Counted from the first letter of the stretch, positions 7,319-49,884 are shown. The stretch is DNA of 64,000 nt from a virus (IMGVR_UViG_3300045988_182554:1-64000); one strand, 5' to 3'. The notes: a model not told the origin generated them from the sequence alone. Numbers and translations are program-made.

Positions 7319-7346
7319 TTGCGGAATCGTGCGAATTGCAGACAAT
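7319..7346 (+). promoter_or_regulatory. island promoter-operator module copy 1 (TTGCGG-16-GACAAT; spacer operator CGTGCGAATTGCA)
   Basis: Member of a 16-copy family; upstream of flotillin operon. Confidence 0.6.
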
Positions 7347-7439
7347 TAAAGACAGAGCGATTGTGAGATGGGGCGATACCGATGCAGTAGGGATGAGAAT
7401 CTTAGCAGCTAAAAAACTGAATGTGGAGAAATAAAAATT

Positions 7440-9083
7440 ATGGTATACGTGATTGGAATTGTAGCAGCCCTGATTATTCTCTTTGGATTTCTCTGCTACA
7501 AGAAAGCTCCGCCCACGGAGGCTATCGTTGTGACCGGCTTTGGTCTGTCTAAGCCTAAAGTGGTTTGCGGAAAGGGTACATTTGTTCTGCCCGTTCTTCA
7601 ACGGGCTGACCGACTGAATATGCGCCTTCTGAAAATTGACGTCAAAACTCCTGAAACAGGTGTTAAGACGAAGAACGGCGTAAGTCTTTGGATTGACTCT
7701 GTTGTCACGATTCAAGTTTACAGCGAAAACTCTACCGTTCTGGATGAAGAAGTGAAGGCATCCGGTCTGAAAGACGCCAAGGCGTACATCATGTCCCGCC
7801 AGCAGGCAGCCATCTCGAACTTTCTCGGCATGAACGAGCAGGGCATCAATGAGAAAGTTAATGACGTTCTGCAGGGCAATTTGCGTGAGATTGTCTCTGA
7901 CATGACCGTTGACCAAATTCTGACGAACCGCAAGCAGATGGCTGTGAGCGTTATCGAGAATGCTCGCCCCGACCTTGCTAAGATGGGACTTGAGGTCGTG
8001 ACTTTTAATGTCCAGGACATCAGGGATGCAGTGGATGTTCAAGGCCACAATCACGGCGTTATCGAAGCTATCGGCATCGAACAGGAAGAGCTCGTAAAGA
8101 AACAGGCTGAAATTGCCCGTGCTCAGGCTGCCCGTGATGTAGCCTGCGCGAAGGCCGATGCTGAGATGGCTGCAAATGCCAAGGAAGTTGAAGCGCAGAC
8201 TGCGATTGCAAAACGCAACAATGAATTGCAGCTCGCCAAGGCAAAGCTGAAAGCTGAAGCTGATAAAGCTGCGGCTGACGCAGATGCTGCCGGTCAGATT
8301 CAGATGAATCTCCGCGCCAAAGAAATCAAAGAAGCGGAAGCGGATGCTGAAATCGCCAAGCAGAAGAAAATGGTAGACCTTGCCGCACAGGAAGCTGAGG
8401 TCCAGCAACGCAAACTGGATGCGGAAGTCCGCAAACAGGCAGATGCTGACCTGTACCGCCGCCAGAAAGAGGCAGAAGCCAAGAAATATGAGGCGGAACG
8501 TGCAGCTGAGGCACAGAAGTTCTCCAAGCAGCAGGAAGCAGAAGGCATTGAGCTTGTCGGTAAGGCAGAAGCTGAAGCGATTCGTCAGAAAGGCTTGGCT
8601 GAAGCGGAAGCCATGAAACAGAAAGCAGAGGCATATAAGCAGTATAACGATGCGGCTGTGGCTGAAATGCTCATCAAGGTTCTTCCTGACATTGCCAAGA
8701 GCGTGGCTCAGCCTTTGTCCAGCATTGATAAGGTTTCTATCATTGGCGGTGACGCCTCCGGCGTATCCGGCGTTTCCGGGAACGTTCCTATCCTGATGGC
8801 TCAAACCATGCAGACGGTGAAAGAAGCGACCGGCATTGACATGGGCGAAATTGTCCGTGCCAACAGCATCCAGGCAAAGACCGACCGCAACATCAACATT
8901 ATGACTCAATGTGAACAGCCTGAGAATAACAAAGAGAAAGGAGGTGCCAAGGCAATGGAACGCGTAGAAGGCGGCTATCTGATTCATGAGAAGAGTCTCA
9001 ACGGTGAGAAAGTCACTCATTTTCGACCGGATGTGACCGAAGAAGAGAAGGCTATCATGAAAGGCAAAAAGGCCAAAGATTAA
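7440..9083 (+). CDS. flotillin-like SPFH/band-7 protein
   Basis: N-terminal TM helix, SPFH domain, long Ala/Glu/Lys/Gln-rich coiled coil typical of FloT/YuaG. Confidence 0.85.
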   Translation: MVYVIGIVAALIILFGFLCYKKAPPTEAIVVTGFGLSKPKVVCGKGTFVLPVLQRADRLNMRLLKIDVKTPETGVKTKNGVSLWIDSVVTIQVYSENSTVLDEEVKASGLKDAKAYIMSRQQAAISNFLGMNEQGINEKVNDVLQGNLREIVSDMTVDQILTNRKQMAVSVIENARPDLAKMGLEVVTFNVQDIRDAVDVQGHNHGVIEAIGIEQEELVKKQAEIARAQAARDVACAKADAEMAANAKEVEAQTAIAKRNNELQLAKAKLKAEADKAAADADAAGQIQMNLRAKEIKEAEADAEIAKQKKMVDLAAQEAEVQQRKLDAEVRKQADADLYRRQKEAEAKKYEAERAAEAQKFSKQQEAEGIELVGKAEAEAIRQKGLAEAEAMKQKAEAYKQYNDAAVAEMLIKVLPDIAKSVAQPLSSIDKVSIIGGDASGVSGVSGNVPILMAQTMQTVKEATGIDMGEIVRANSIQAKTDRNINIMTQCEQPENNKEKGGAKAMERVEGGYLIHEKSLNGEKVTHFRPDVTEEEKAIMKGKKAKD

Positions 9084-9203
9084 AGACAACATGAAAAGAG
9101 GGTGACTCGAAAGAGCCATCCTTTTTTCTGTTGTGACGCAAACGAAAAGTTCATGGTGGCCATCCAATTTAGGTGACTGTCTTTTTTGCATGTTAAGACT
9201 TTG

Positions 9204-9231
9204 TTGCTGAATTGTGCGAATTGAAGATAAT
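9204..9231 (+). promoter_or_regulatory. promoter-operator copy 2 (TTGCTG-16-GATAAT)
   Basis: Spacer TGTGCGAATTGAA; upstream of 9286 gene. Confidence 0.6.
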
Positions 9232-9285
9232 TAAAAACAAAAGATGCTTTGTATCAAATCGATTGAAACCGAAGAGGTGAAGTTA

Positions 9286-10089
9286 ATGCTTGGCGTGAGT
9301 TTGATTATCATAGCAGCGGCTATAGTCTACATGGTCGAAACCTATATCAGCACCTATTACACTATCGAATACATGCACGGAACATCGCTGTTCCTTATCC
9401 TCCTTGCGAAATATGGCACGCCAGTCCTGTTCCTGCTGCTCTGCGCCTACATTGCATATCGCAATTTTCTCAAAAAGCAGAAAGCTGCGGCTTCTGCTGC
9501 ATCTGAACGGCCTACAAGCAAAGAAGAGCTGTATACCAACAAAATTCAAACGGCAGTAAAGACAAAAAGCGTCTTCTCAGAGCAGGCTGACCAAATGCTG
9601 TATCAGGTACGGCGCTTCGGGCAAAAAATGGCCGTTGCCTACAGCATGACCCAGGATAGCAAGACATCCGGGGAACAAGCCAAGTGCCTGACGTTATTGG
9701 AATCCGCAGAACGTATCTTCTATGACCGACTGGATGACGCGATTCGCTCGGCTTCAATGTTTGATGAAACGGAATACAAGGCTTTCTGTCAAGGCTCTAT
9801 CTCGTTTGGAAACAAAGAAGAAGCTCAGAAAAAGAAAGAAATCTACAATGGTATCGTAAGTACCGTGGATAAAGTAGTTCATGACAATGAACGCTTAATC
9901 CTCCGATTGGATTCTTTAGCATACGCTCTGAACCAACGTTCTGCCCAGAATCCGTGGGATACAGAGGTTGTGCTCGCAATGTCAAAGCTCGATGCTGTCA
10001 TTAACAAGACGACGCAGGATATTGAACAGGATGAAGATATCAGTCGTGAGGCTATGAAACGATATAACAACTTGAAAGGAGAAATTTAA
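9286..10089 (+). CDS. membrane protein (two N-terminal TM helices plus helical cytoplasmic domain)
   Basis: GAGGTG RBS then ATG; hydrophobic segments LGVSLIIIAAAIVYMV and SLFLILLAKYGTPVLFLLLCAYIAY. Confidence 0.55.
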   Translation: MLGVSLIIIAAAIVYMVETYISTYYTIEYMHGTSLFLILLAKYGTPVLFLLLCAYIAYRNFLKKQKAAASAASERPTSKEELYTNKIQTAVKTKSVFSEQADQMLYQVRRFGQKMAVAYSMTQDSKTSGEQAKCLTLLESAERIFYDRLDDAIRSASMFDETEYKAFCQGSISFGNKEEAQKKKEIYNGIVSTVDKVVHDNERLILRLDSLAYALNQRSAQNPWDTEVVLAMSKLDAVINKTTQDIEQDEDISREAMKRYNNLKGEI

Positions 10090-10090
10090 C

Positions 10091-11785
10091 GTGACAAAAA
10101 AGAACATTTTCCCTGTGGTTGCAACCATTGCTGTGGTAGGCGTTGTTCTCGGCGTGTTTTCGACGACTGTGCTGCGCGACTCGAATGTCAGCATCAGCAC
10201 GATGACTTCCGAGCAGGCATATGCCAACTTGAGCAGCAAGATGAAGCGCATCGGCGTGCAGGAGGTCAAGGTCAATCCTCAGCAGCTGGATGTCTCTGAA
10301 TTCCTTGATGCAAAGGATGAACTGCCCGACATTGAATCCTCCTACCCATTCGTGGTCGTAGGAAACGGAGATGTGAACATCGAAATCTTTTCCTCTGGCG
10401 AGAAAGCAGCAGAGTCCGGCTCAGATTCTTTCCTGACCGAAATGGCAAAGAAGTTCAACGCCCAGCACAACAAGACTTCCGGAGACAAGACTATGAGTGT
10501 CTCCCTGCGCTCCATTCCGTCCGGTACGGCGGCTGAGTACATCTCGACGGGAAAGTATCAGCCCGAGTGCTATACCCCCTCAAATACGCTCTTTGGCGAG
10601 CTGGTGAAGAACGAGGGCGTAGAATTGACCGTTGAGGCTGACCGTCTGGTCGGCAATGTGGCGGGTATTCTCGTATCAAAGAAGACAGGGGATATGCTTC
10701 GCTCTGAATACGGTGAAGCGTCTGTTTCTTCCGTTCTGAACGCAACCATCGATGGCAAACTCATGATGGGATACTCGAACCCCTACACAAGTGCTACGGG
10801 TCTTAATTTTCTGCTTGAGGCTCTTGCGAGCAGCGGCAGCGATACGATTGTCGATACGGCTGCTGTTGAGAATTTCCAGAAATTTCAAGCGAACGTCCCT
10901 CTCGTATCCTTCACGACCCAGCAGATGGTCCAGTCGGCAGACAAGGGCATCGTGGACGGCGTTGTCATGGAGTATCAGTCTTATCAGAATGACCCGACCT
11001 TACAGCGCAACTACGAGTTCATCCCGTTCGGTGTACGGCACGATAATCCTCTGTATTCCATCGGGAATGTCTCTGCGGAGAAGAAGGAAGTTATTGCTGC
11101 CTTCGTTTCCTTCTGCGCTCAGAACCAGGCAGAGGCGACCAAGGACGGATTCAATGGTCTTGACGACTATGCTTATACAGGCAAGGCATACGACGGCAAC
11201 ACCATCGCACAGGCTCAGAGTGTCTGGAAAGAAGAGAAGGATTCCGGTATTCCTATTGTGGCAGAGTTCGTTGTCGATACTTCCGGCTCAATGCGCGGCG
11301 AACCCCTGAATGCCCTGAAAACCGCGATGATAAACACCATCCAGTATATCAATGACGACAACTATATCGGCATCATTGGCTTTGATTCAGATGTCAGGGA
11401 ATACCTGCCCATTGACCAGTTCTCTCTGACCCAGAAAACTCTGTATAAGGGTGCCGTGAACTCCCTCGATGCGAACGGCAGCACCGCAATGTACAACGGT
11501 CTTTGCGTTGCTATGGACCGCATCTACCAGAAATCTCAGGAACTGGGTGGGAATTGCACGCCCATCATCTTTGTGCTCACGGACGGTGACAACAATACCG
11601 GATATGGCTTCTCCGATACGAAGAACATCATTGCCGGTATGGATATCCCCATTTACACCATCAGCTACAACTACGCAGCGGATAGTCTTTCGGAGCTCGC
11701 TTCCATCAACGAAGCGGCAGCTATCGTCGGCAACAGCGAGGATATCACCTACAAGCTCCGCAACCTGTTTAACGCAGAGATGTAA
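10091..11785 (+). CDS. membrane-anchored von Willebrand factor type A (VWA) domain protein
   Basis: GTG start after AAAGGAG; N-terminal TM; C-terminal VWA with MIDAS-like DTSGSM, TAMYNGL, IIFVLTDGDNN. Confidence 0.8.
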   Translation: MTKKNIFPVVATIAVVGVVLGVFSTTVLRDSNVSISTMTSEQAYANLSSKMKRIGVQEVKVNPQQLDVSEFLDAKDELPDIESSYPFVVVGNGDVNIEIFSSGEKAAESGSDSFLTEMAKKFNAQHNKTSGDKTMSVSLRSIPSGTAAEYISTGKYQPECYTPSNTLFGELVKNEGVELTVEADRLVGNVAGILVSKKTGDMLRSEYGEASVSSVLNATIDGKLMMGYSNPYTSATGLNFLLEALASSGSDTIVDTAAVENFQKFQANVPLVSFTTQQMVQSADKGIVDGVVMEYQSYQNDPTLQRNYEFIPFGVRHDNPLYSIGNVSAEKKEVIAAFVSFCAQNQAEATKDGFNGLDDYAYTGKAYDGNTIAQAQSVWKEEKDSGIPIVAEFVVDTSGSMRGEPLNALKTAMINTIQYINDDNYIGIIGFDSDVREYLPIDQFSLTQKTLYKGAVNSLDANGSTAMYNGLCVAMDRIYQKSQELGGNCTPIIFVLTDGDNNTGYGFSDTKNIIAGMDIPIYTISYNYAADSLSELASINEAAAIVGNSEDITYKLRNLFNAEM

Positions 11786-11823
11786 CTCAAAAGCGCGGTT
11801 TTGTCCGCGCAGCTGCTCCAAAA

Positions 11824-11855
11824 GACAGCCTCCACGCGGCGAGCAGCGGGCAACG
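11824..11855 (+). repeat. conserved leader motif copy 1 (ACAGCCTCCACGCGGCG-N-GGGCAAC)
   Basis: One of three related 30-nt elements (with 55152 and 56961), each embedded in a local stem. Confidence 0.5.
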
Positions 11856-11904
11856 GGAGACAGTTCCGGCAAATTGTCTTTGAGACGGAAGGAGGAAGTG
11901 CCCT

Positions 11905-13407: not shown

Positions 13408-13435
13408 TTGCACAGCCGTGCAAATTGCATACAAT
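13408..13435 (+). promoter_or_regulatory. promoter-operator copy 3 (TTGCAC-16-TACAAT), palindromic variant TGCAAATTGCA
   Basis: Upstream of the 13778 NTPase gene with about 340-nt leader. Confidence 0.55.
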
Positions 13436-13777: not shown

Positions 13778-15943
13778 ATGGCAAGAAGGAAAACAAACGA
13801 CTTGGAAAATCAGATGTCGCTCATGGACATGATGGCATCGAAAAGCCCCGAATATACCGAAGAAGGCCCGGAAGAACTCTTGGACCCCGGCGAGGACATG
13901 GAGGACAGTGAAGGGCAGACGGATAAGCCCTTCAAACTCGTGGCGAACAAGACCACGAAGGCAAAGGCGAGCATCTCCACGCAGGCGTTGAGTGTTGTGA
14001 AGGCGGTATATGCTGATACGGTCGAAACGAATTGGGAAGAATTGTTTGACGGGTTCGACAGACTCTATGCTATCACTTTTTCGTCCGGTATCGAGTTCGT
14101 GAATAAGGTCATCAACAAGTTCTCGTATGCGGAAGTCGTGTTCGGATGCGAGAAAATCATCGCCAACGACATTGCTGCCATCATGTCGGTGCAAATCGAC
14201 AGCGTGCAGCGGCTCGCTAAGTCTAAGTCGGCAGGAAACCTTGCGAACCGCCTCGATGACGGGTCCTTGCAGCTGTATGTATCGCGGGACACGAAATCGC
14301 ACGAGAAAATCTTTATCTTGGAGAGCGCTGACCATAAGCGTGTCCGAGTCATCACCGGCAGTGCGAATATGTCGGCATCGGCGTTTTGCGGCATTCAGCG
14401 AGAGAATATCGTCTGCTTCGATGACGAGGCGGCATTTTCGCATTACAAGGTTCTGTTCGAGACCTTCAAGGAGACCTGCTCCGACAATGTCTCCTATAAG
14501 GCAGTCGTGAACACCATGAACCAGGAAGATTATCTGAAAGAGAACATCAAAGAAGTGCCCGTCTTTCAGTCTATTGAAAAGCAGAAGCTTGTCTTTCTGG
14601 AACAGGCACAGCCTGAGGATGAGGTCGAATACGAGATAGTTGCCGATGTCAAGAAAATGCAGGAACTCGTCAAGCCAATCATGCCTAAGATGCCGGTACA
14701 GGCGAATCGTATTGTAGTGGCAGCGGAACCGATGCGCGTTTTCGGGAAACGATATACCGAGGTGCGGCGTGTGGCAGCTGAGGCAGTTAAGCAGCTCCCG
14801 AAATTACATATCGACTATGATGCCGGGACCATGACCTTCAACGACGAGAATATCGACCTCAATCCGAATCTCAGCGAGGTGGCAAAGAACATCAAGAGCA
14901 TCCAGAAGTTCTTCTCAGGCATGGACTACTTTTACGGCGATGTCGAACAGGCCAAGAAGGACTACTTCAAGTACATGACCTGGTATCTGGCTACTCCGTT
15001 CATGGCGTATCTGCGGTATTTCGCATCGAGGAACAACTACGATACGAAGCTGTTCCCGATGTACGGCGTTATATACGGCGACTCAAACGGCGGCAAGACG
15101 ACCTTTATAAAATTTCTTGTCAAACTCATGTGCGGTGAGACCGTTAAGATGAACACGACGGAGGATTTCACAGCCACAAGAATCGACGGCCTCAAACGAG
15201 TTTGTGAGGGACTGCCGCTGAACATCGACGACCTCGCCAAGACCCAGTTTCAGAACCATTCAGAACGGGTAATCAAGAACGATGAATGGGGTATCTCGGA
15301 CAGGCTCGTGAACTATCCTGCTGTATCTATCACATCGAATAAAATTACCTCGCTGACAAAAGACCTCTCGAAACGTGCTATCATCTGTCGAATTGGTGCT
15401 AAAATCGACAACGAGCGCGGTGCCAAGAACTCGAAGCGTGTGAATGAGAGTATGTCGGAGCTGACAACCGCGTTCTATGGCGAATATGTCCGCCGAATGC
15501 TTGTTTGCATCGATGAGATGACGACGGAAATGCGTGAAAATGCGAATGGCAAGGAATACTTCCCGGATATCTTCCACGCTTCGTCTAGTGTCATTGCAGA
15601 TATCTTCGAGGCATGCGGAATCGATTTGCCGGACTATGTGCGTATCCTGTACTATAACGACTATATGGGTGATGAGAGCATTGGTCGTGCTGCAATTGAG
15701 AAAATCGAACTGGCATGGCAGGCTGACCCGAGCAAGTTCCGGGTTGATAAGAAGCAGAACAGGCTCATTTACTCCTATCCGCCGGATGGACCGTGGTACG
15801 AACTGAAATACATTGCAGATGAGCTGCCGAACTCCCTCGAAGCAGAGATTTCTGGCGGCAACCAGCTTATCATGAACTACGAGCAGGCACAGGAATTGTT
15901 CGGCATCAAGTTTCGGCGCTGGCTGGGCATCTTTAACCTCTAA
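13778..15943 (+). CDS. large P-loop NTPase with N-terminal domain carrying a degenerate HKD/PLD-like motif
   Basis: Walker A GDSNGGKTTF, Walker B-like LNIDDL (helicase/primase-like); N-terminal ESADHKRVRVITGSANMS. Confidence 0.7.
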   Translation: MARRKTNDLENQMSLMDMMASKSPEYTEEGPEELLDPGEDMEDSEGQTDKPFKLVANKTTKAKASISTQALSVVKAVYADTVETNWEELFDGFDRLYAITFSSGIEFVNKVINKFSYAEVVFGCEKIIANDIAAIMSVQIDSVQRLAKSKSAGNLANRLDDGSLQLYVSRDTKSHEKIFILESADHKRVRVITGSANMSASAFCGIQRENIVCFDDEAAFSHYKVLFETFKETCSDNVSYKAVVNTMNQEDYLKENIKEVPVFQSIEKQKLVFLEQAQPEDEVEYEIVADVKKMQELVKPIMPKMPVQANRIVVAAEPMRVFGKRYTEVRRVAAEAVKQLPKLHIDYDAGTMTFNDENIDLNPNLSEVAKNIKSIQKFFSGMDYFYGDVEQAKKDYFKYMTWYLATPFMAYLRYFASRNNYDTKLFPMYGVIYGDSNGGKTTFIKFLVKLMCGETVKMNTTEDFTATRIDGLKRVCEGLPLNIDDLAKTQFQNHSERVIKNDEWGISDRLVNYPAVSITSNKITSLTKDLSKRAIICRIGAKIDNERGAKNSKRVNESMSELTTAFYGEYVRRMLVCIDEMTTEMRENANGKEYFPDIFHASSSVIADIFEACGIDLPDYVRILYYNDYMGDESIGRAAIEKIELAWQADPSKFRVDKKQNRLIYSYPPDGPWYELKYIADELPNSLEAEISGGNQLIMNYEQAQELFGIKFRRWLGIFNL

Positions 15944-15994: not shown

Positions 15995-16022
15995 TTGCCC
16001 ATTTGTGCGAATTGCAGACAAT
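15995..16022 (+). promoter_or_regulatory. promoter-operator copy 4 (TTGCCC-16-GACAAT)
   Basis: Spacer TGTGCGAATTGCA. Confidence 0.6.
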
Positions 16023-16096
16023 CAGAAATAAAGCGTAAAGCAAAGGAGCTGAGTACCATCTCAAAATTTGCAAGCAAAAAGTTGATTGAGCGAAAT

Positions 16097-16549
16097 TGGA
16101 ATATCATGAAAGACTACGGCAACGGCTATTCCATTGAGGAGCTTGCCGCAAAATACAGGTTGAGCGTCCGTACATGCTATCGAGCGTTAGACGACGCGAA
16201 ACAGAAGGCCAGAATTCAGTTGGCGCAGGTAGAGGATGCCAGAAAAGCTGAAATCCTTGCGGCATACAAGAACAGTGTCCCTCTCAAGGAAATGATTGCG
16301 AAATTTAACGTGGCAGAAGGATATTGCAGCATGGTTGCCAACGATGCGGGCCTGACTGAAAACCGTAGAAATGAGCGCATCAAAATTCGGCAAAAACCCC
16401 GCAATGAGAATATCTTTCGAGAATACGAGAGTGGCGTGCCGGTGCAGAAACTATCCGAAAAATATCAGCTCTCGGTTCCGGGCATTTACAAAGTGATTCA
16501 AAGAGTCAGAAAGCAGAAGGAGGCGATGGAGTTTTGCAATGGATTGTGA
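16097..16549 (+). CDS. tandem HTH-repeat protein (3 repeats), start uncertain
   Basis: Three repeats of the pattern x-EELA-KY-LS-x-TCYR (sigma-70 region 4 / resolvase-type HTH-like). Confidence 0.6.
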   Translation, partial: WNIMKDYGNGYSIEELAAKYRLSVRTCYRALDDAKQKARIQLAQVEDARKAEILAAYKNSVPLKEMIAKFNVAEGYCSMVANDAGLTENRRNERIKIRQKPRNENIFREYESGVPVQKLSEKYQLSVPGIYKVIQRVRKQKEAMEFCNGL

Positions 16550-17205: not shown

Positions 17206-17233
17206 TTGCGAAACTGTGCGAATCGCAGACAAT
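17206..17233 (+). promoter_or_regulatory. promoter-operator copy 5 (TTGCGA-16-GACAAT), palindrome TGCGAATCGCA
   Basis: Upstream of 17273 gene. Confidence 0.6.
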
Positions 17234-19619: not shown

Positions 19620-19647
19620 TTGCAAAAACGTACGATACCCGTACAAT
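19620..19647 (+). promoter_or_regulatory. promoter-operator copy 6, divergent spacer (TTGCAA-16-TACAAT; spacer CGTACGATACCCG)
   Basis: Upstream of 19688 gene. Confidence 0.45.
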
Positions 19648-20354: not shown

Positions 20355-20382
20355 TTGTCAATCTGTGCGAATTACGTACAAT
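20355..20382 (+). promoter_or_regulatory. promoter-operator copy 7 (TTGTCA-16-TACAAT)
   Basis: Spacer TGTGCGAATTACG. Confidence 0.6.
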
Positions 20383-20469
20383 GAAAAATATAAACCAAAA
20401 ATATATCTTATCGTTGTCCCGCATGAGTTGTTTGTGCGGGACTTTTTTGTTTGCGGAAAGGAAATGCAC

Positions 20470-24513: not shown

Positions 24514-26400
24514 TCACTGAACAACTTCGCCAAGGTCATTTGCGTATTTCGGGTCACACATCATGAAATAGTTGACGGGGCCGTACTCCAGACCGAGCTC
24601 CTGCGCGTATGCCTTGATGACTTCCAGAACGTCCTCTTTCTTGAGATTATACTTGGAATGCAGACGGGCAAACTCTTTGTCAGAGACAGAAACGCAAGAG
24701 CAATTTTCTGCATCGGTTTCTTTGCTGCCCAGCATCCCGTCAAAGATGTCCTGTCCTGCACAGAGAGTCGTCTCATTGTTCATCGCATAGGCGATAACGG
24801 AAGCCTTACAGTCAAAGTCGCTGGCTTCCACAAGGAAATCCTCAGGGCGGCCGTGACGTTCAACAACGTTTTCATAGATGTCCCGGAGTTCGATAGGGGC
24901 AGAAGGAGCGGTCAGCGCTGCTTTATGAAGGCGCATGAATTCCACAAACTTTTCATCCGAGAGGGTGTCGGTATAAAAGCCGATGCCGGAAACGCGAACC
25001 TTCACTTCGCTGGCAAAGTAATCGTCAATTTTGGAGACGATTTTCTGCTGGACCCGCTTGTATGCTTCCTGAACATTGGAAGCCGTGTAAAATACCGGGA
25101 ACTTCATGATGTCGATTCCCTCCGGCAGACTCGCGTCATAGGCCGCATCAATGCCGCCTCGCAGCGCCGGAACCGCGTCATGCAGCTCTTTCACAGAAGA
25201 AATGTATCCGGTAATGTACAGCTCATCGTTTTTGCTGTAATGCCCGATAAGTCCCACATAGAGGGTCTGCATCAGCATCCGCTTGAAGCTGAACCAACAA
25301 AGACGAATGGGTAGAATGACATTAGCAGCCGTACCTTCCGCACGATAGGTGCCGGGGGCAGAGACCTTTTCCAGCAGAATCTGGTCGTTCTTGTCACCGT
25401 ATTTTTCCTTGAAAAGAGCTTGAAGAATTTCAGTGGACGAAAGAGGAGTGGACATTGGAATCGTTTCATTCAGAAAAGAGAGGAATGCATCCACGTTGTC
25501 TTTCTGCCATGCGTCATCAGACATGCTTGCACGCTGCATAGAGAGCTTGTCTTTCCCGTCGTCAGGCAAGGGCTCATACCCACAGGCGATACGAAGCTCG
25601 TTCTCCGTGACAGCATCCGTTGCGCTTGCAATTTTCTTGATGGTATTCTCGGTCGGCTGAGCTTTTGCGTTGCCATTCACGAGGCTGCTGATATACCCAC
25701 GAGTCAGTCCTGCCTGAAACGCAAACTTACCCTGTGTGCGGGTTCCGATGGCTTTTTTGACCAACGATGCCAGCCTTTGAAAGTCGGGCTCTTTGGGAAA
25801 GGTGGCCTCCGTATCTTTATTGCTGTTCTTTTCAAGTACCGACTTGTCCCAACCGGTGACAAGAGAATACCCAATATCCTTCAAGGATTGATAGGCAACC
25901 CCGTTCTGGTCAAGAGCCGGGGAGAATGTACCGCTGTTATCTTCCAGCTGCTCTACTGCCTCACGCACCATCCTTGCTTCGTTCATCAGGATGACGTCCG
26001 GGGCCTCAAGCCGGGCAAGACTCTTGTACCGACTATTGAGGCGCTCGACTCGTGCGGCCAATGCAGTGATGTCATCAAGTTGGTCCTTCGTTGCATGGGC
26101 AGAGATATCTGCACCAAGTTCAAAATGGTTCAGTGCAGGAATATCCACGCCTTTGCTCTTGGCGAATTCCACAATGGCTTCCGCGCCATAAAAACGTTTC
26201 TCATGGGCTGCGACAACTTTCGTTATCGTGTCGGCCGAGTTGTCCAGCTCAAGCACTTCACCTTTTCCGGCATCCTCGACATAACACCTGGCGTTGGTGA
26301 GAAAGCCTTTCAAAAAATCAGCATCCACATCCAGCTTCTTAGCGATGCCGGGCAGCTGCTTATAGAAAATCACGCGCGTGGCGAGGTTAACAGAAATCAT
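24514..26400 (-). CDS. large protein with internal XRE-type HTH
   Basis: 628 aa; HTH-like FAFQAGLTRGYISSLVNGNAKAQPTENTIKKIA; overlapping plus-strand ORFs read as antisense junk. Confidence 0.6.
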   Translation of the reverse strand: MISVNLATRVIFYKQLPGIAKKLDVDADFLKGFLTNARCYVEDAGKGEVLELDNSADTITKVVAAHEKRFYGAEAIVEFAKSKGVDIPALNHFELGADISAHATKDQLDDITALAARVERLNSRYKSLARLEAPDVILMNEARMVREAVEQLEDNSGTFSPALDQNGVAYQSLKDIGYSLVTGWDKSVLEKNSNKDTEATFPKEPDFQRLASLVKKAIGTRTQGKFAFQAGLTRGYISSLVNGNAKAQPTENTIKKIASATDAVTENELRIACGYEPLPDDGKDKLSMQRASMSDDAWQKDNVDAFLSFLNETIPMSTPLSSTEILQALFKEKYGDKNDQILLEKVSAPGTYRAEGTAANVILPIRLCWFSFKRMLMQTLYVGLIGHYSKNDELYITGYISSVKELHDAVPALRGGIDAAYDASLPEGIDIMKFPVFYTASNVQEAYKRVQQKIVSKIDDYFASEVKVRVSGIGFYTDTLSDEKFVEFMRLHKAALTAPSAPIELRDIYENVVERHGRPEDFLVEASDFDCKASVIAYAMNNETTLCAGQDIFDGMLGSKETDAENCSCVSVSDKEFARLHSKYNLKKEDVLEVIKAYAQELGLEYGPVNYFMMCDPKYANDLGEVVQ

Positions 26401-26614
26401 GGTGTACTCCTTTCAAATATGTCATTAGCTGTACAATGCTGTCATCTTCTGTAATTATAATAGCACATCCCGCACCAAAAAGCAAGCATGAATTTACAAA
26501 AAATGACAAGAAAATACACAAGATGACATATTTGGGCAAAGCAATTGATTCTTGAGCTTTCCGGCTTGGTGACGGAACAAGCTCTATGCGCCTTGTCTTT
26601 ACCACAGTTTTGCC

Positions 26615-26642
26615 TTGTGCATCCGTGCGAATTAAATACAAT
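26615..26642 (+). promoter_or_regulatory. promoter-operator copy 8 (TTGTGC-16-TACAAT)
   Basis: Spacer CGTGCGAATTAAA; upstream of acidic protein gene. Confidence 0.6.
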
Positions 26643-27137: not shown

Positions 27138-27165
27138 TTGACCTGATGTGCGAGGCTCGTACAAT
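27138..27165 (+). promoter_or_regulatory. promoter-operator copy 9 (TTGACC-16-TACAAT); no ORF before next promoter, possible short transcript
   Basis: Spacer TGTGCGAGGCTCG. Confidence 0.45.
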
Positions 27166-27243: not shown

Positions 27244-27271
27244 TTTTTCTTTTGTGCGAGTTGCGTACAAT
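27244..27271 (+). promoter_or_regulatory. promoter-operator copy 10 (weak -35; TGTGCGAGTTGCG-TACAAT)
   Basis: Upstream of lipoprotein-macrodomain operon. Confidence 0.5.
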
Positions 27272-29419: not shown

Positions 29420-29447
29420 TTGCAAAACCGTGCGAATTGAAGATAAT
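29420..29447 (+). promoter_or_regulatory. promoter-operator copy 11 (TTGCAA-16-GATAAT) driving a short noncoding unit
   Basis: Followed by about 170 nt without ORF and a terminator at 29590-29632. Confidence 0.55.
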
Positions 29448-29787: not shown

Positions 29788-29815
29788 TTGCCAACTTGTG
29801 CGATTCGCATACAAT
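29788..29815 (+). promoter_or_regulatory. promoter-operator copy 12 (TTGCCA-16-TACAAT), perfect palindrome TGCGATTCGCA; cas operon promoter
   Basis: About 70 nt upstream of cas5c. Confidence 0.6.
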
Positions 29816-32491: not shown

Positions 32492-32493
32492 CA

Positions 32494-33753: not shown

Positions 33754-33781
33754 TTGCACATCTGTGCGAATCAGATATAAT
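33754..33781 (+). promoter_or_regulatory. promoter-operator copy 13 (TTGCAC-16-TATAAT)
   Basis: Upstream of UvrD-like helicase gene. Confidence 0.6.
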
Positions 33782-37417: not shown

Positions 37418-37563
37418 GTTCGTTGTCGATACTTCCGGTTCAATGCGCGGAGAACCTATCAATGCACTGAAAACGGCCATGATTAACACCATCCAGTATA
37501 TCAATGACGACAACTATATCGGCATCCTCGATGAGTTGCTGGATATTCTTAACGATAAATAAT
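37418..37563 (+). pseudogene. truncated VWA-domain gene fragment (near-copy of 11266-11392)
   Basis: About 120 bp about 85% identical to the MIDAS region of the VWA gene; encodes FVVDTSGSMRGEPINALKTAMINTIQYINDDNYIGI with no start codon. Confidence 0.7.
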
Positions 37564-42671: not shown

Positions 42672-43136
42672 ATGTCCACTCTCAAAAACGGCGAGTTTGG
42701 CATCGACTTGGACAAGGAGAAAATTCTCTGGACCGACCGAAAACGCCACACCATCTTTTCTCTGCCGCTGTCCTTTACGAAGTATACCCTGACCGAGACC
42801 AAACTTATCATCCAACGTGGCTGCTTTAACCTGCGCGAGGATGAGATTCAGCTGTACCGCGTCCGGGACATTGCGTTCAAGCAGAACTTCTATGAGCGCC
42901 TTTGCCGTGTCGGCAGCATCCATCTCTGCTCTACGGATGCCATGACACCGGAAATTGATATCCGTCGTATCAAGAACCCGCGCGATGTCAAGGAAGTGCT
43001 TTCTAAGACCATCGAGGCTTGCCGGAAAGCGAACGGCATCCGTACTTCGGAAATCATCGGGGACCATGGTCACTTCCCCGAGCCTGCCCCGCATGGTATG
43101 CCGCCTGAACCCTGCCACGAACATCCCCATAACTAA
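42672..43136 (+). CDS. bacterial PH (bPH_2/YdbT-like) domain protein with His/Pro-rich tail
   Basis: AAAGGAG RBS; IDLDKEKILWTDRKRHTIFSLPLSFTKYTLTETKLIIQRG pattern. Confidence 0.55.
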   Translation: MSTLKNGEFGIDLDKEKILWTDRKRHTIFSLPLSFTKYTLTETKLIIQRGCFNLREDEIQLYRVRDIAFKQNFYERLCRVGSIHLCSTDAMTPEIDIRRIKNPRDVKEVLSKTIEACRKANGIRTSEIIGDHGHFPEPAPHGMPPEPCHEHPHN

Positions 43137-43140
43137 TAAT

Positions 43141-43178
43141 AGCCCGTACAGATTCGGTTCTGTGCGGGCTATTTTTTG
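43141..43178 (+). terminator. rho-independent terminator
   Basis: AGCCCGTACA-N10-TGTGCGGGCT plus T6. Confidence 0.65.
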
Positions 43179-43299
43179 TTTACAAAGAAATTTTTGGGTG
43201 GTGAGGCAGTTGACCAGCTATGCGAACGGCTTAGAATTATAAGTGCAATAAGCAAACACACATCGACACAGTCAACAACCCCGCCTAAACCGGTTCGCC

Positions 43300-43365
43300 G
43301 GTTATAATTGAGAGCCAGAAAACCTGCAGGTTTGCCTGTGGGATGAATGGCTCTCAATTATAACA
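43300..43365 (+). repeat. perfect 16-bp inverted repeat (GGTTATAATTGAGAGCC / GGCTCTCAATTATAAC) enclosing a 12-bp palindrome AACCTGCAGGTT
   Basis: Read directly; followed by GNRA hairpin CAGGGCGCAAGCCCTG at 43380-43395. Confidence 0.6.
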
Positions 43366-43495
43366 TTGGCGAAGTGGGCCACAGGGCGCAAGCCCTGACT
43401 TATAGTTTCATTACGCGTCACTTGGCGCACCGATATGTTTGCCAATTGCCCTTGCGGTGACATTTTTGCATCCGCAGCATAAAAGGAGAAATAAA

Positions 43496-43612
43496 TGAAG
43501 AAGTTTTTGAAAATCATCATTTTCGCTATCCTGGCCGGACTTGGTGCTTTCTGGTATACAGAAAACCAGAAGCGCCGGACCATGATTCCGCTCGAATTTC
43601 GAGGCGAGTGAA
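43496..43612 (+). CDS. tiny membrane peptide (38 aa)
   Basis: AAAAGGAGAAA RBS; MKKFLKIIIFAILAGLGAFWY. Confidence 0.35.
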
Positions 43613-43825
43613 ATGCAAAAAGACATCAAAATTGTGCTGGAAATCATCTGGTATCTGGTCCTGCCGGTTGTGGCTCTTGCGCTCTACATCAAATATTGGC
43701 ACTGGTATACCGCAAATCTCGGTTGGTCCTTGACTCATCCATCCTACATTGTTTTCGGATTTATTTTGAGCGCTGCACTGTGCTTTGAAATTGTATATAT
43801 CGACATTAAGTTTGGCGAAAAATAG
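43613..43825 (+). CDS. small membrane protein (70 aa, 2 TM)
   Basis: Start overlaps previous stop; hydrophobic helices. Confidence 0.45.
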   Translation: MQKDIKIVLEIIWYLVLPVVALALYIKYWHWYTANLGWSLTHPSYIVFGFILSAALCFEIVYIDIKFGEK

Positions 43826-43828
43826 CGC

Positions 43829-43856
43829 TTGCCAAAATATACGAACGCCGTACAAT
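43829..43856 (+). promoter_or_regulatory. promoter-operator copy 14, divergent spacer (TTGCCA-16-TACAAT; ATACGAACGCCG)
   Basis: Upstream of MBL lipoprotein gene. Confidence 0.45.
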
Positions 43857-43966
43857 GTAAAGTGTGAACAGATACTAAGCAATCAGTAGGATTCACAATC
43901 TGTATTTTAAGCGGACTTATCCCATAGCGGGGTAGGTCCGCTTTTTTTGTTGAAAGGAGAAAAAGT

Positions 43967-45127
43967 ATGAAACTCAAAAACAATCTATTCCGGAGCACGG
44001 CGGCAATCATCGCTACGCTCCTTGCACTCAGCTTCACCGGCTGCGGTCAGAATCCGATAATATCGGAAAGTCCATCCAGCACCGGGGTCGTCTCAGAAAG
44101 CACTGCAAGCAGTGAACAGACGGCTGGCGGTTCGGTGGACGGCAGCTTTACGATTCACTTTTTAGACGTAGGACAGGCGGATTCCGCCCTTATCACCTGC
44201 GACGGCCACTCAATGCTCATTGATGGCGGCAATGTCGATGATTCTAACGTTCTTTACTCTGTCATGCAGCGTGAAACCGATGAACACCTGGATTATGTCG
44301 TTGGAACCCACGCACACGAAGACCATATCGGCGGTTTGTCCGGTGCCTTTGAGGCCGTCACTGCGGACATGACTCTATGCCCTGTGACAGAATACGACAG
44401 CAAAGCATTTCGGGACTTTGCAAGCTACGCGGAGCAAAAAGGCGGAGGCATCACGATACCGGATGTGGGTGAAACCTACACTCTGGGGGAAGCGGAATTC
44501 ACGATAGTTGGTGTTAATTCTGTTCCCGATGACACGAACAATACTTCGATTGTTTTGCGTATTGTCTATGGAGACACCTCGTTCCTCTTTACCGGAGATG
44601 CGGAACAGGAAGCGGAAAACGTGATACTTGCATCGGGACAAGACATTCAGTCAACAGTTCTGAAAGTAGGGCACCATGGCTCAAGTACATCTACCTCAGA
44701 GGCTTTTCTGGATGCGGTAAATCCAACATATGCTGTGATTTCTTGTGGCACAGGGAACAGTTACGGTCATCCACATCAGGAAACACTCGACAAGTTGCAA
44801 AACAAAGGTGTCGAGGTTTATCGCACAGACCTGCTGGGCGATATTTACTGCACCTCGGATGGCAAAGAGGTAAGTTTCACTTCCGGTGAATATCATGATG
44901 AAAATCGGATTGAAGCCGGTAGTGCTGTAGGTTCCAAGGATGAACAGGACAAAGCTTCACTTGTCATAGACGAGACATACGTTCTGAACACGAGCACTAT
45001 GAAGTTTCACAAACCCGATTGCTCTGCAGTCGAATCGATGAGTCAAAAGAATCGAATCGACTATATGGGGCCCCGCGATGAGCTCATCCAGGAAGGGTAT
45101 TCGGCGTGTGGGATTTGCAAACCATAA
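43967..45127 (+). CDS. secreted lipoprotein with ComEC/Rec2-type metallo-beta-lactamase fold
   Basis: Lipobox LSFTGC; HAHEDHIGG (HxHxDH) motif; later GHHGS; Cys-rich C-terminus. Confidence 0.8.
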   Translation: MKLKNNLFRSTAAIIATLLALSFTGCGQNPIISESPSSTGVVSESTASSEQTAGGSVDGSFTIHFLDVGQADSALITCDGHSMLIDGGNVDDSNVLYSVMQRETDEHLDYVVGTHAHEDHIGGLSGAFEAVTADMTLCPVTEYDSKAFRDFASYAEQKGGGITIPDVGETYTLGEAEFTIVGVNSVPDDTNNTSIVLRIVYGDTSFLFTGDAEQEAENVILASGQDIQSTVLKVGHHGSSTSTSEAFLDAVNPTYAVISCGTGNSYGHPHQETLDKLQNKGVEVYRTDLLGDIYCTSDGKEVSFTSGEYHDENRIEAGSAVGSKDEQDKASLVIDETYVLNTSTMKFHKPDCSAVESMSQKNRIDYMGPRDELIQEGYSACGICKP

Positions 45128-45145
45128 AAATTGCACCTGATTTAC

Positions 45146-45173
45146 TCGACAAGCTGTGCGAACCGACTACAAT
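45146..45173 (+). promoter_or_regulatory. promoter-operator copy 15 (TCGACA-16-TACAAT; CTGTGCGAACCGAC)
   Basis: Upstream of the 45319-47527 gene group. Confidence 0.55.
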
Positions 45174-45318
45174 AAAAATTGTACGATAGATAACATTCCA
45201 TATCGAAAGGGTTTTATGCCTTTCGTACATTCACAATTCTGCAGACATAAGGCAGACTCACCGTCTTGGTGGGCCTGCCTTTTTTGTTTGCGCAACTATA
45301 AAAAAGGAGTATAACGCA

Positions 45319-46059
45319 ATGTTCAAAATTCACGATGACAAGGTCTACTTCGTCGCCGAAACCCCTAACATCAACAAAGTTATCGAAATCTTCCTACCTA
45401 AGGATGACCGTGGCACCATTATGGATTCACACGAAATCCGTGTGGACCTGTGCCGTGCCGTCATTCACATGGAGAAGAAGGGTGTCCGTGTCTTGAAGGT
45501 CCGCAACATTGAGGATACCAACAAGGCAAGCATCGACATCTGGCACATGCCGGAATATCAGGAGGCTGCAGAGTCTCCCGTAAGCAATGTGGTCAATGCC
45601 TGCATTGAGTCCTGCTTTGATTCCGGTGCAATGTTCAATCTGCCATGCAAAGCCAACCGCAAAACCCATGAAGTTTTTGCTGTCGAATGCTGCGCAAGCC
45701 CCGATGATGATGACTCGTTCAGCCATGCAGATGTCGAAATTGACGGGCAGTCCTACCCGCTCAATTTTGTCTCTGACATCATGGATGAGAACGATGTCAA
45801 CAACGCATTGGATGAGTTCTACCGAATCCAGCAGACCGGCGAATATTGGGAAGCGCACGACGGCAAATCGCTCACGGACGCTATCCATGAATGTCGGTGG
45901 GCTATCCTGAAGGATGCCATCCAAAAGCGTGGACATGAGGCTGTTGCTGATTTTGTCGGGACCGACATTTCCAGTGATACTTACGACCGTGTGATGGATG
46001 AAACCGAAGCCCAGATGCCGGACGAAGAGTTCGAGCGCTTCTGGGAAAAGTACATCTGA
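45319..46059 (+). CDS. acidic hypothetical protein
   Basis: 246 aa, D/E-rich. Confidence 0.55.
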   Translation: MFKIHDDKVYFVAETPNINKVIEIFLPKDDRGTIMDSHEIRVDLCRAVIHMEKKGVRVLKVRNIEDTNKASIDIWHMPEYQEAAESPVSNVVNACIESCFDSGAMFNLPCKANRKTHEVFAVECCASPDDDDSFSHADVEIDGQSYPLNFVSDIMDENDVNNALDEFYRIQQTGEYWEAHDGKSLTDAIHECRWAILKDAIQKRGHEAVADFVGTDISSDTYDRVMDETEAQMPDEEFERFWEKYI

Positions 46060-47855: not shown

Positions 47856-48738
47856 CATCCTCGACCTTGATGACTTCACTTATCAGATGCTTGAGATGAA
47901 CCCCAACTCTATGGGCTTCTGGTTTCCTCCTCTGGTAGAGGGATTGTACGGCAGCGCATTTTTCAAGGTTCCGGACACAAAAATTCTTCGCGTACCTATC
48001 ACCATGCTGCAGCTTACCCGCCTTGGTTTCGAGACGTTGAATCCCGTTACAAAGGAAATCGTGAACCGTTATTGCCAGAAAGTCTTCCATCTTGATGGAT
48101 ACGAAGACTATTTTATCAAAACGGGCACGTATTCTTCCAAATACGAATTCCGCAACGCTCATATCCATAACCCGAAGGAAATCAATGAGATGGGCGAGTA
48201 TTTCTTGTTTTTGAATCATCTGACATGCTCGATGGCATCCCCTCTGAACAATCGCTGCTTCTACGGCGCGAACACCACGAACGAGTGGGTCGTCAGAGAA
48301 TACATCAAGGACAAAGAAAATAACCCCACCATCTACAACGGTTTGCCGCTGCACACTGAATATCGCGTGTTTGTGGATTTTGATACAAAGGAAATCCTTG
48401 GCGCAAGTCCTTATTGGCGCAGCGATGTTATGAAGAACGAATTCAAAAAAGTCAGCAGCCCACAGGAACGCCATGATTATGTTGTCTACAAGATGCATGA
48501 AGACATTCTGAACCAGCGTTACCACGAAAGCGTTCAAACTGTTCTGGCTGAACTGAAGAAGGTTATTCCTCGCATTGAGTTGACGGGGCAGTGGAGCGTC
48601 GATGTAATGCGCAACGGCAATGATTACTACATCATTGATATGGCGCTTGCTGAGAACTCTGCTCTGAATGACTGCGTGCCGAGTAACCGCCTTCGTGCTT
48701 ATCCGCAGCAGTGGCTGCCGGGTGAATCGAACAGCTGA
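47821..48738 (+). CDS. hypothetical protein, possibly C-terminal part of a frameshifted gene
   Basis: No RBS before ATG 47821; frame opens at GACAAAAATG; 305 aa. Confidence 0.5.
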   Translation: MFYYNMFRQGLDILDLDDFTYQMLEMNPNSMGFWFPPLVEGLYGSAFFKVPDTKILRVPITMLQLTRLGFETLNPVTKEIVNRYCQKVFHLDGYEDYFIKTGTYSSKYEFRNAHIHNPKEINEMGEYFLFLNHLTCSMASPLNNRCFYGANTTNEWVVREYIKDKENNPTIYNGLPLHTEYRVFVDFDTKEILGASPYWRSDVMKNEFKKVSSPQERHDYVVYKMHEDILNQRYHESVQTVLAELKKVIPRIELTGQWSVDVMRNGNDYYIIDMALAENSALNDCVPSNRLRAYPQQWLPGESNS

Positions 48739-48859
48739 TACTCCTAGAACGAAACTTTGATTCGGATTCTTTCAGCAGAAAGCGTAGGAACCAAAATCAT
48801 ACGAAATGATTGTGTTAACACATAAAAACAAGTATAATATATGCAAGGAAGTGATAATA

Positions 48860-49312
48860 ATGGTTCTGTATCATGGCAGCGATGTAATAGTCCGCAACCC
48901 TGAGGTCAGAAAAACAAGGTACGCCAAAGATTTTTCATGGGGATTCTATTGCACTAGCAACTACGAACAAGCCGCTCGCTGGTCAAAAAAAGGCAGGTCT
49001 CGTGGTATTGTCAACGTGTTTGAATATACAGAATCTCCCATGCTAAATATTAAGAAATTCCCCGAAATGAGTGATGAGTGGCTTGATTTTATTGCTATAT
49101 GTCGCTCGGGCAAACATCATGACTATGATATTGTGGAAGGACCCATGGCGGATGACACCATTTGGAACTACGTCAACGACTTTCTAAGCGGTGATATTAG
49201 CCGTGAAGCTTTTTGGGCGTTGGCAAAATTCAAGCATCCCACGCATCAAATCAGCTTTCACACGGAAGTCGCTTTGAAATGTCTCTCTTTTAAGGAGGCG
49301 ATTGAAGTATGA
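48860..49312 (+). CDS. DUF3990-family protein
   Basis: MVLYHGS...FSWGFYCTSNYEQAARWSKK matches the DUF3990 N-terminal signature from memory. Confidence 0.7.
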   Translation: MVLYHGSDVIVRNPEVRKTRYAKDFSWGFYCTSNYEQAARWSKKGRSRGIVNVFEYTESPMLNIKKFPEMSDEWLDFIAICRSGKHHDYDIVEGPMADDTIWNYVNDFLSGDISREAFWALAKFKHPTHQISFHTEVALKCLSFKEAIEV

Positions 49313-49758
49313 CTGAAACTGCAACCTACAGCAAAAACGATGTCTTTTATACCTGCAGCCTGATTGAATATATCGGCCGCGTTACGAGGAATCATCGCAA
49401 GGATGTGGTTTCTGCTCTTGGCACAAACGGAGTCAAGGCAATTCTCGACTCAGCGGATGCGTTTCACTGCCAGAGCTTTGAGCAATCTGCCGATGAAATT
49501 TGTGAGCTTTTTCCTGTGCCGGAAGGAACGTATGATACGGTGTCTAACTGCCACTACAAGGTTCCATCTTATACAGATATCGGAAAAGTGTACCAGCGCA
49601 TCATCTTTGACTGTACTAGCACTCCTGGTGTCCAGGATGTAATTGATGTATTTTCCTCGTTCATTAGCGATGACATCTCAGATTTTAATACTGCAACTTA
49701 CTATTGTAATCCGAGCTATTTGTACCACTCATACAAGGCCGGAAAACTACTGGATTGA
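49309..49758 (+). CDS. DUF3791-like protein (usual partner of DUF3990)
   Basis: FYTCSLIEYIGRVTRNHRKDVVSALG pattern; 4-nt overlap with upstream gene. Confidence 0.55.
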   Translation: MTETATYSKNDVFYTCSLIEYIGRVTRNHRKDVVSALGTNGVKAILDSADAFHCQSFEQSADEICELFPVPEGTYDTVSNCHYKVPSYTDIGKVYQRIIFDCTSTPGVQDVIDVFSSFISDDISDFNTATYYCNPSYLYHSYKAGKLLD

Positions 49759-49856
49759 TTTTCAAAAGCAATAGCAATCAAGACCACTGCCCCAAAAAGG
49801 GTGGTGGTCTTATTTTTTTGCACAATACTTACCATAAATTACCAGAAAGAAAAACA

Positions 49857-49884
49857 TTGTGCATCTGTGCGAATTGCATATAAT
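49857..49884 (+). promoter_or_regulatory. promoter-operator copy 16 (TTGTGC-16-TATAAT; TGTGCGAATTGCA)
   Basis: Upstream of HTH-repeat gene cluster. Confidence 0.6.

Follow-up and report, generated by a model that had tools for sequence, protein, structure and literature searches.

In phage P1, asymmetric C1 operators that are read by a monomer are scattered over many promoters, with one repressor serving many dispersed genes. Lambda (PR' with the Q-binding element and tR', and also nut) and HK022 (put) possess promoter-proximal terminators together with conserved DNA or RNA signals just downstream, and in lambda the element that binds the factor Q sits in the promoter spacer. In the Bacillus phage SPβ, the SPBRE element occurs in about ten promoter regions; sequence alone had pointed to a regulator site, and binding of one phage repressor, MrpR, was demonstrated afterwards (PMC10516654). 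T4-like phages contain PeSL elements, composites of a terminator and an early promoter which flank variable open reading frames (ORFs) in hyperplastic regions and act as exchange points for sequences that are otherwise unrelated (PMC4122927, PMC2839356). The T4 middle promoters (sigma appropriation by AsiA/MotA) combine a host -10 element with a box for a phage factor at a fixed distance (PMC6755090). Here we describe a 28-bp promoter-like module repeated along a stretch of viral DNA of 64,000 nucleotides (IMGVR_UViG_3300045988_182554:1-64000; the window, in the following). An earlier reading of this stretch, the original prediction, had claimed at least sixteen copies between 7319 and 49884, controlled as one regulon by a dimeric repressor.

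The pattern TTGC-N18-KAYAAT was found thirteen times in the window, twelve of them on the plus strand, against 0.87 expected, and none of 100 shuffles reached thirteen. An iterated weight matrix found twenty window sites, all on the plus strand, and none in twenty shuffled windows. The module reads TTGc-N16-TAcAAT with the core TGTGCGAA in a fixed register. The sixteen predicted sites therefore stand as a real module, but their number is twenty and their range is wider than 7319-49884; relatives show three further modules in the 10 kb beyond its right end. Downstream of all twenty window sites there is a plus-strand ORF with a Shine-Dalgarno-like sequence, 18-430 nucleotides (nt) from the predicted start. 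Across 925 kb of related viral loci (the family loci) 317 sites were found, and none of the 77 family loci with at least two sites carries them on both strands. In one relative (L245) two modules stand back to back, at 4521 on the minus strand and at 4598 on the plus strand, serving divergent genes, which indicates that the modules track gene orientation even where the array is broken.

The signal resides in the promoter register, since TGTGCGAAT as a free-standing 9-mer shows no enrichment (25 occurrences allowing one mismatch, 20.8 expected) and 202 of the 306 exact GTGCGAA matches in the family loci have a -10 hexamer exactly 5 nt 3' of them. The full TTG-N7-core-N4-hexamer register is present in 193, and all other offsets between GTGCGAA and the -10 element are rare. 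Contrary to what had been stated, TGTGCGAAT is not always found in the spacer, as the variants GTGCAAAT, GTACGATA, ATACGAAC and GTGCGAGG also occur. In anatomy, orientation and position the modules correspond to sigma-70/sigma-A promoters heading most cassettes, as had been proposed, and the view that the repeats are one class of sigma-A (sigma-70-type) promoters of a phage family is well supported by these sequence features. We infer that the host sigma-A RNA polymerase (RNAP) uses them. The module offers a sequence handle with which to delimit accessory (defence and anti-defence) cassettes and to predict co-regulated genes.

The consensus of 201 unique sites is c-TTGC-nnAnnT-GTGCGAAT-TGCA-TACAAT-nAAAA, in which TTG, T12-G13-C14-G15-A16 and the -10 positions A24, A27 and T28 hold about 1.7-2 bits per position. 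The TTG is about 97% conserved across sites, the -10 T-A-x-A-A-T positions are 87-99% conserved, and the spacer is exactly 16 bp long. The core TGTGCGAA(T/C) is near-invariant and asymmetric and lies at about -24 to -17 within the spacer. Two classes were distinguished. Class A (GTGCGAATTGCA-GAYAAT or TACAAT) usually leads directly into a gene. Class B (GTGCGAAC...) runs on into the conserved transcribed sequence TTGTACGATAGATAcCA and makes up about a third of the family modules, with a structured leader and an intrinsic terminator.

Sigma-A is not known to read -24 to -17 base-specifically, and a dedicated factor is thus the simplest explanation of the core. Our preferred reading, with a probability of roughly 0.6, is that the modules are a phage-specific class of sigma-A promoters which would be controlled through the spacer core by a phage factor. 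A module, mostly placed after the terminator of the previous cassette, stands at the head of the next co-oriented accessory cassette, and one phage-encoded factor would dock on the core and switch the whole promoter class together. As the core lies between the -35 and -10 elements, this factor would most likely repress rather than activate. The earlier suggestion of an element-encoded regulator acting through the conserved spacer remains plausible. Boxes for the host factors Spo0A (TGTCGAA) and Firmicute LexA (GAAC-N4-GTTC) and the cre box were compared by eye and rejected for misfits in sequence or spacing, and sigma-54 (-24/-12) and extended -10 (TGn) elements were rejected likewise.

Orthologous copies of the module were chosen and aligned through their flanking homology, and the weight matrix was not used. 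Among them the TTG is 100%, the -10 hexamer 98% and core positions 11, 12, 14 and 16 are 100% conserved, against 90-92% in the flanks. Positions 19-22 are conserved at 90%, as the flanks are, and in orthologous pairs the right half-site TYGCA is conserved at 86-90% against 88-92% for flanking intergenic DNA. Constraint is thus clear for the -35 and -10 elements, partial for the core and absent for the proposed second half-site. This favours an asymmetric recognition element over a symmetric dimeric operator.

The regulator of the original prediction was a symmetric dimeric repressor that occludes RNAP from an 11-bp palindrome, TGCGA-N-TCGCA. The spacer is a typical position for a repressor, and three window sites (13408, 17206 and 29788) are indeed perfect 5-1-5 palindromes, but only these three of the twenty; four other sites match at four of five positions and the remainder at three or fewer. 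At positions 18-22 the family consensus (T, T/C, G, C, A) is a mirror image of TGCGA in four places out of five, though weakly, as this right half holds 0.45-0.8 bits per position against 1.7-2.0 (close to 2 for TGCGA) in the left half. Its conservation among orthologues does not exceed that of the flanks, and class-B modules swap it entirely (GTGCGAACnGCA). Half-site centres only 6 bp apart are ill-suited to a classical helix-turn-helix (HTH) dimer. We therefore do not retain the dimeric palindromic operator as proposed and consider it quite unlikely.

The modules of the window and the features associated with them are listed below.

2221..2248, plus strand: promoter module with the -35 variant TCGACA, 5' of the metallophosphatase gene at 2285
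7163..7190, plus strand: class-B-like module, with a leader or small RNA of about 120 nt predicted to end at the terminator 7283-7313
7283..7313, plus strand: intrinsic terminator between the tandem modules 7163 and 7319
7319..7346, plus strand: class-A module, 5' of the SPFH/flotillin gene 7440-9083
9204..9231, plus strand: class-A module, 5' of 9286-10089 and the VWA gene
13408..13435, plus strand: module with core GTGCAAAT and a 5-1-5 palindrome, 5' of the PLD nuclease gene 13778-15943
15995..16022, plus strand: class-A module, 5' of the Mor-like double-HTH gene, cassette junction inside the core
17206..17233, plus strand: class-A module with perfect TGCGA-A-TCGCA, 5' of 17273-17869
19620..19647, plus strand: divergent module with core GTACGATA, 5' of 19688-20296
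20355..20382, plus strand: module, 5' of the ResIII helicase/NADAR operon, followed by a terminator-like hairpin at 20416-20448
24514..26400, minus strand: antisense gene for a protein of 628 amino acids (aa), with a β′ clamp-like domain (clamp helices 105-176), an XRE HTH (207-275) and a C-terminal domain
26457..26485, minus strand: degenerate module-like promoter (TTGCTT-N17-TATTAT) serving the 628-aa gene; counted from its -35 element, TGCG stands in the register of the modules
26615..26642, plus strand: class-A module divergent from the 628-aa gene, cassette junction inside the core
27138..27165, plus strand: class-B-like module, followed by a short leader and the terminator 27212-27248
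27244..27271, plus strand: module, 5' of 27296-27703
29420..29447, plus strand: class-A module, followed by the terminator 29592-29631
29788..29815, plus strand: module with TGCGA-T-TCGCA, 5' of type I-C cas5-cas8c-cas7 (29884-33456)
33754..33781, plus strand: module, 5' of the UvrD-like helicase gene, with a leader hairpin/terminator at 33804-33845
43210..43237, plus strand: class-B-like module (ATGCGAAC) with a long structured leader
43829..43856, plus strand: class-B-like module, followed by a leader, the terminator 43911-43948 and the MBL-fold gene at 43967
45146..45173, plus strand: class-B module, cassette junction inside the core
45178..45252, plus strand: canonical copy of the leader RNA, with stem P1 (UUGUACG/CGUACAA) and hairpin P2, 62 bits to model R1
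45251..45285, plus strand: intrinsic terminator of this leader, 34 nt 5' of the gene at 45319
49857..49884, plus strand: class-A module, 5' of three HTH-repeat genes (49997-51990)
61354..61381, plus strand: weak module-like promoter with TGCGAA shifted by 2 nt, 5' of a 46-aa ORF and the XRE gene 61641-61862

Strong terminators were found within about 130 nt upstream of 95 of 191 modules, against 16 in the antisense control. With terminators 5' of half the modules, the repeated unit can be regarded as a terminator joined to a promoter. The points at which homology between the window and its relatives breaks off are enriched near the modules, with 13 of 102 distinct breakpoints falling within 60 nt of a module where 4.2 are expected (maximum of 11 in 1,000 simulations). 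At the modules 15995, 26615 and 45146 the variable -35 half goes along with the cassette before it and the -10 half with the cassette after it, and the switch takes place within TGTGCGAA. When 211 sites were profiled in pairs, this transition zone appeared again, with fuzzy limits. Precise cassette junctions at the motif had been named beforehand as the finding that would mark it as a recombination site. Such junctions do exist at these three modules, but the promoter register is kept throughout, and because it is perfect in every copy we read the junctions as an added role and not as a refutation of promoter function. We infer that the shared core fosters the exchange of cassettes through homology-guided recombination, so that this short sequence would double as an exchange point among related genomes.

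Junctions confined to about 12 bp at three modules might also be expected if the core were the target of a site-specific recombinase acting on integron-like cassettes, with promoter function as a secondary role. The window proteins scanned contain no recombinase except an IS605 TnpB, the usual inverted-repeat-plus-spacer architecture is absent from the site, and the transition zones are fuzzy, with no single fixed phosphate. Together with the perfect register, these observations make a recombinase target highly improbable.

The same junctions, with -35 and -10 halves that travel apart, and the excess of breakpoints near modules also agree with an explanation that needs no dedicated regulator. 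The module would then be a preferred strong promoter for host RNAP that was copied with the cassettes, its core being kept by descent and gene conversion. Such a promoter would be akin to the extended consensus of T4 or T5 early promoters. In a set of over 200 cassettes that share no homology, core positions 12-16 nevertheless hold as much information as the -10 and -35 elements do, the core is unchanged in clades whose proteins are down to 40% identical, and sigma-A is not known to be a base-specific reader of this part of the spacer. The modest constraint on the core in orthologues is in favour of this explanation, for which the PeSL elements of T4-like phages provide a precedent (PMC4122927). 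Overall, we regard a strong promoter without its own regulator as a tentative alternative that is rather unlikely.

Only one gene lies against the array, at 24514-26400 on the minus strand. For its 628-aa product over 455 homologues were found, with identities down to 40% and a length that stays at about 626 aa. The gene runs opposite to its neighbours in every case and keeps its synteny with the PLD and VWA genes. Modules were found within 10 kb of it in all 71 viral loci that carry a homologue, 410 of these 414 modules being on the opposite strand, and one core is common to three clades whose versions of the protein show 97%, 55% and 40% identity; it persists in clades at 40-56% identity. 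In the family locus L250, the homologue's own promoter is a degenerate module, TTGCAT-tcacTTGCGGATTGtc-TAAAAT.

Residues 108-176 of this protein are homologous to the RNAP β′ clamp helices (E. coli β′ 262-330); the single sequence gives E = 1.2e-5, and with the family profile this falls to 6.5e-10. In RNAP, this coiled coil is the main docking site of sigma region 2, and NusG binds there too. The AlphaFold (AF2) model of the protein has a predicted local distance difference test (pLDDT) score of 85.6, and its top 50 Foldseek matches are all β′ subunits. The β′ clamp-like part makes up the N-terminal 200 or so residues and is followed by the XRE HTH and by a domain of about 350 aa of unknown fold; the HTH is the best-conserved domain, with 23 of 69 columns invariant. 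No DxDxD cluster representing the catalytic double-psi barrel NADFDGD, which a true polymerase subunit would have, was found among the invariant columns of the family. A literature text search returned no described counterpart of the protein or of its domain, and neither the protein-cluster look-up nor the GenBank phages gave it a name. As a core gene that is antisense in the array and contains a conserved HTH and a β′ clamp-like domain, it is, on this evidence, the best candidate for the factor that reads the core, and we support its earlier nomination on these grounds. It is an unusual candidate in that it holds a copy of the sigma-docking part of RNAP, and purified proteins allow a direct test.

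In the segments 15995-16549 and 49997-51990, the Mor-like protein and the HTH-repeat proteins consist of two to about six tandem short HTH units (Mor, HTH_23, HTH_28), an unusual architecture, and each set has its own module. Searches of PDB sequences with both gave nothing informative.

Several observations weigh against the preferred reading. Orthologue core positions 13, 15, 17 and 18 are just 81-92% conserved, which is near background, so that constraint on the core is moderate. The sameness of the core across cassettes could stem from descent and recombination without any binding protein. The -35 element matches at three to four of six positions and the spacer is 16 bp, features that also fit a promoter which needs help to fire. 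The link between the 628-aa protein and the core consists of co-occurrence within one phage family, and the window encodes other HTH proteins, namely the Mor-like (about 16058-16549), HTH-repeat (49997-51990) and small XRE (61641-61862) proteins, which are possible alternative readers of the core. As regards phage identity, no structural hallmark genes were found in the stretches read, including a PHROG scan to the right of the window.

A further reading, which is speculative and which we hold to be unlikely, is that the 628-aa protein combines a clamp decoy with an HTH. Its clamp helices would capture host sigma-A or NusG, and the decoy-sigma pair would sit on the modules as a catalytically dead pseudo-holoenzyme. 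The -35 element would be contacted by sigma region 4, the -10 element by sigma region 2 and the spacer core by the HTH. The β′ zipper and the zinc-binding region of genuine RNAP adjoin the same stretch of the spacer. If true, such a decoy would explain an asymmetric core that is locked to one register in more than 200 promoters, and it would be a previously undescribed phage switch for a whole promoter class.

Strong intrinsic terminators also occur downstream of the modules. They were found within 200 nt in 95 of 185 family modules, against 6 in the antisense control, and their distribution by class is uneven (class B, 59 of 62; others, 36 of 123). In the window, seven of the twenty promoters have leader terminators (7163, 20355, 27138, 29420, 33754, 43829 and 45146), a layer absent from the original prediction. 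These terminators may form a second checkpoint, in which case class-B cassettes would need read-through or antitermination.

The class-B leader begins with stem P1, in which a near-invariant UUGUACG pairs with CGUACAA, followed by a conserved internal AUAGAUACCAUCUAC and by hairpin P2, whose sequence varies. Next come the linker UUCACAAUUCUGC, which is conserved, then the terminator and finally the ribosome-binding site of the gene. A covariance model of the leader, R1, was made from 25 copies. Searched with it, the window yields a single canonical copy (45178-45252, 62 bits), and 871 kb of family DNA yield 70. In the leader alignment, which was fitted to the model and thereby favours the structure, 85.6% of cells are paired and the covariation score is 0.212 against 0.148 when shuffled (0 of 500 reach it); of the five P2 pairs, four have double changes. 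A MAFFT alignment folded with RNAalifold gave the invariant P1 only, and P2 was seen after realignment with the covariance model. The linker is complementary to the 5' arm of the terminator, and this complementarity is kept through the versions UCUGC:GCAGA, UUCGC:GCGGA and UCCGC:GUGGA, which suggests a weak anti-terminator helix that could be stabilised by a protein or a ligand. An Rfam scan of the window at gathering thresholds found no match to the leader, and Rfam E-value scans of 43100-45400 and of four leader-rich loci returned nothing relevant. The leader RNA of about 110 nt (45178-45285) is thus brought to light, with its 70 copies, as a candidate for a new cis-regulatory attenuator or antitermination element.

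Of 68 class-B sites, 48 have a -10-like TACGAT lying at about +2 to +8. Written as TAnnAT at module position 37 (about +2 to +3), the motif is present in 48 of the 68 class-B sites and in 11 of 133 others, and a general sigma-dependent pause element was rejected since it would hold for class B alone. A pause of this kind would suit a loading site like that of lambda Q, where a phage antiterminator on the spacer would engage paused RNAP and make it read through the leader and later terminators. The terminators within 200 nt of nearly all class-B modules and a conserved element in the spacer, where the Q-binding element of lambda also lies, fit such a site. The same core is, however, present elsewhere, where a pause-like element (11 of 133) and a proximal terminator (36 of 123) are infrequent, and no Q-family match was found among the window proteins scanned. 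TACGAT is moreover the 5' arm of the RNA stem P1, which offers another explanation for its conservation. A Q-like loading site is accordingly judged very unlikely.

The DNA palindrome TACAAT-N4-ATTGTA, spanning -10 to +3, was also rejected as an operator; it occurs at 11 of 201 sites, and in class B the -10 hexamer varies while its partner in the RNA stem remains constant. A second conserved leader type, different from the first, was observed after some class-A modules, with ..ATAAGATAAAnAnnTGTG.. followed by a hairpin or terminator (window 33782-33845 and the family loci L012, L077 and L085).

The setting is not an island, as had been assumed, but a large phage with 21 tRNAs, a transfer-messenger RNA (tmRNA) and related contigs of 230-390 kb. 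The assignment of the window to an uncultured gut phage of about 270 kb rests on the IMG/VR classification, the tRNA and tmRNA content and the sizes of contigs. Metagenome contigs of 268,832 and 275,764 bp carry exact window proteins, contigs of up to 350-390 kb bear homologues of one window gene, and no contig of more than 1 Mb with a window protein appeared in the protein look-ups. One protein cluster of the family has 4,588 member sequences, which makes this gut jumbo-phage family with the module a very abundant, uncultured one.

Copies of the module outside the element exist in large number in related viral contigs (more than 300), but those in species genomes are nearly all chance-like single matches. 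On IMG/VR viral contigs, 28-190 kb in size, the degenerate pattern matched at least 119 stretches, many of them multi-copy. In 185,579 species-representative genomes the matches are mostly single, as expected by chance, and two of 120 stretches share DNA similarity with the phage family. These two truly related contigs from metagenome-assembled genomes (MAGs) are both Clostridiales-type. Faecalimonas MAG matches were discarded as a host clue, being single, chance-like and without DNA similarity to the phage family. No close DNA relatives of the window were found in the GenBank phage or plasmid collections, and a literature text query with the motif string returned primer sequences only.

The cassettes of the co-oriented array include SPFH, VWA, a PLD nuclease, ResIII and UvrD-like helicases, NADAR, an RlaP nucleotidyltransferase, type I-C Cas5/Cas8c/Cas7, a type I methylase with an S subunit, radical SAM and DUF3990. 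As predicted from these proteins, most cassettes headed by modules encode defence- or anti-defence-like functions. The Cas5, Cas8c (Csd1) and Cas7 genes lie at 29884-33456 with no Cas3, Cas1 or Cas2 nearby, and the UvrD-like helicase gene with its own module is next to them. The whole window contains no CRISPR array (no 20-mers repeated at array spacing). A segment of about 90 bp is duplicated, occurring at 11266-11352 in the 3' part of the VWA gene and at 37418-37504 just 5' of the type I methylase gene. Similarity to the close relatives L244 and L245 breaks off at 2798, within the metallophosphatase ORF, and the next 4 kb or so contain minus-strand ORFs and an IS605-type TnpB (5692-6801); the region 2798-7000 is probably an insertion or replacement particular to the window genome.

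The tRNA array at 55224-62427 comprises the 21 tRNA genes and the tmRNA (59973-60372, tag DNNRYASPIAA), and ARAGORN reports an odd tRNA with a 2-nt 'anticodon' at 56648-56723. The segment bearing the tmRNA (59562-60724) is missing from the close relatives L241-L243. Two matches to hepatitis delta virus (HDV)-like ribozymes (HDV-F-prausnitzii) were found at 11812-11881 and 55139-55219. The second stops 4 nt 5' of tRNA-Thr (55224), which suggests ribozyme-assisted processing of the tRNA 5' end. In L241 a Tn7-like element (TnsA, TnsB, TniB, TniQ; 1967-9009, matching window position 62240 or so) is located between the XRE gene and a 223-aa gene. All three relatives have an AcrVA2-like gene and a lysozyme gene immediately beyond the right end of the window.

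The nearest analogues in the way they work are the SPβ, P1 and T4 PeSL systems and, for the leader, those of lambda and HK022; as judged by sequence and protein homology, the module does not appear to belong to any of them. It resembles SPBRE in being a short conserved element repeated in the promoter regions of a large phage, but its sequence is different, its copies are many more, and it has one exact register inside the promoter. The positions of P1 C1 operators vary relative to the promoters, whereas the register of the module is invariant, and there is no homology to C1; no Pfam or PHROG match to C1 or to MrpR, which has a tyrosine-recombinase fold, was found among about 80 window proteins. 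PeSL elements are similar with respect to the terminators 5' of half the modules and the junctions in the module. They differ in phage lineage, host phylum and consensus, the module adding a spacer core and a structured leader, and no T4-like genes were found among the window proteins scanned. Lambda and HK022 have one to three such sites, whereas the module exists in dozens of copies, the majority of which have no pause element or no proximal terminator; neither Q nor N homologues were detected in the scanned window proteins. In T4 middle promoters the MotA box replaces the -35 element, whereas the module keeps the -35 TTG and its box, located in the spacer, is further downstream. Promoter classes specific to a phage are known, as are multi-operator regulons and modules that shuffle promoters and terminators, and here all three are found in one 28-bp element. 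What is new is the exact register, the asymmetric spacer core, the associated leader RNA and a candidate regulator that resembles the polymerase clamp.

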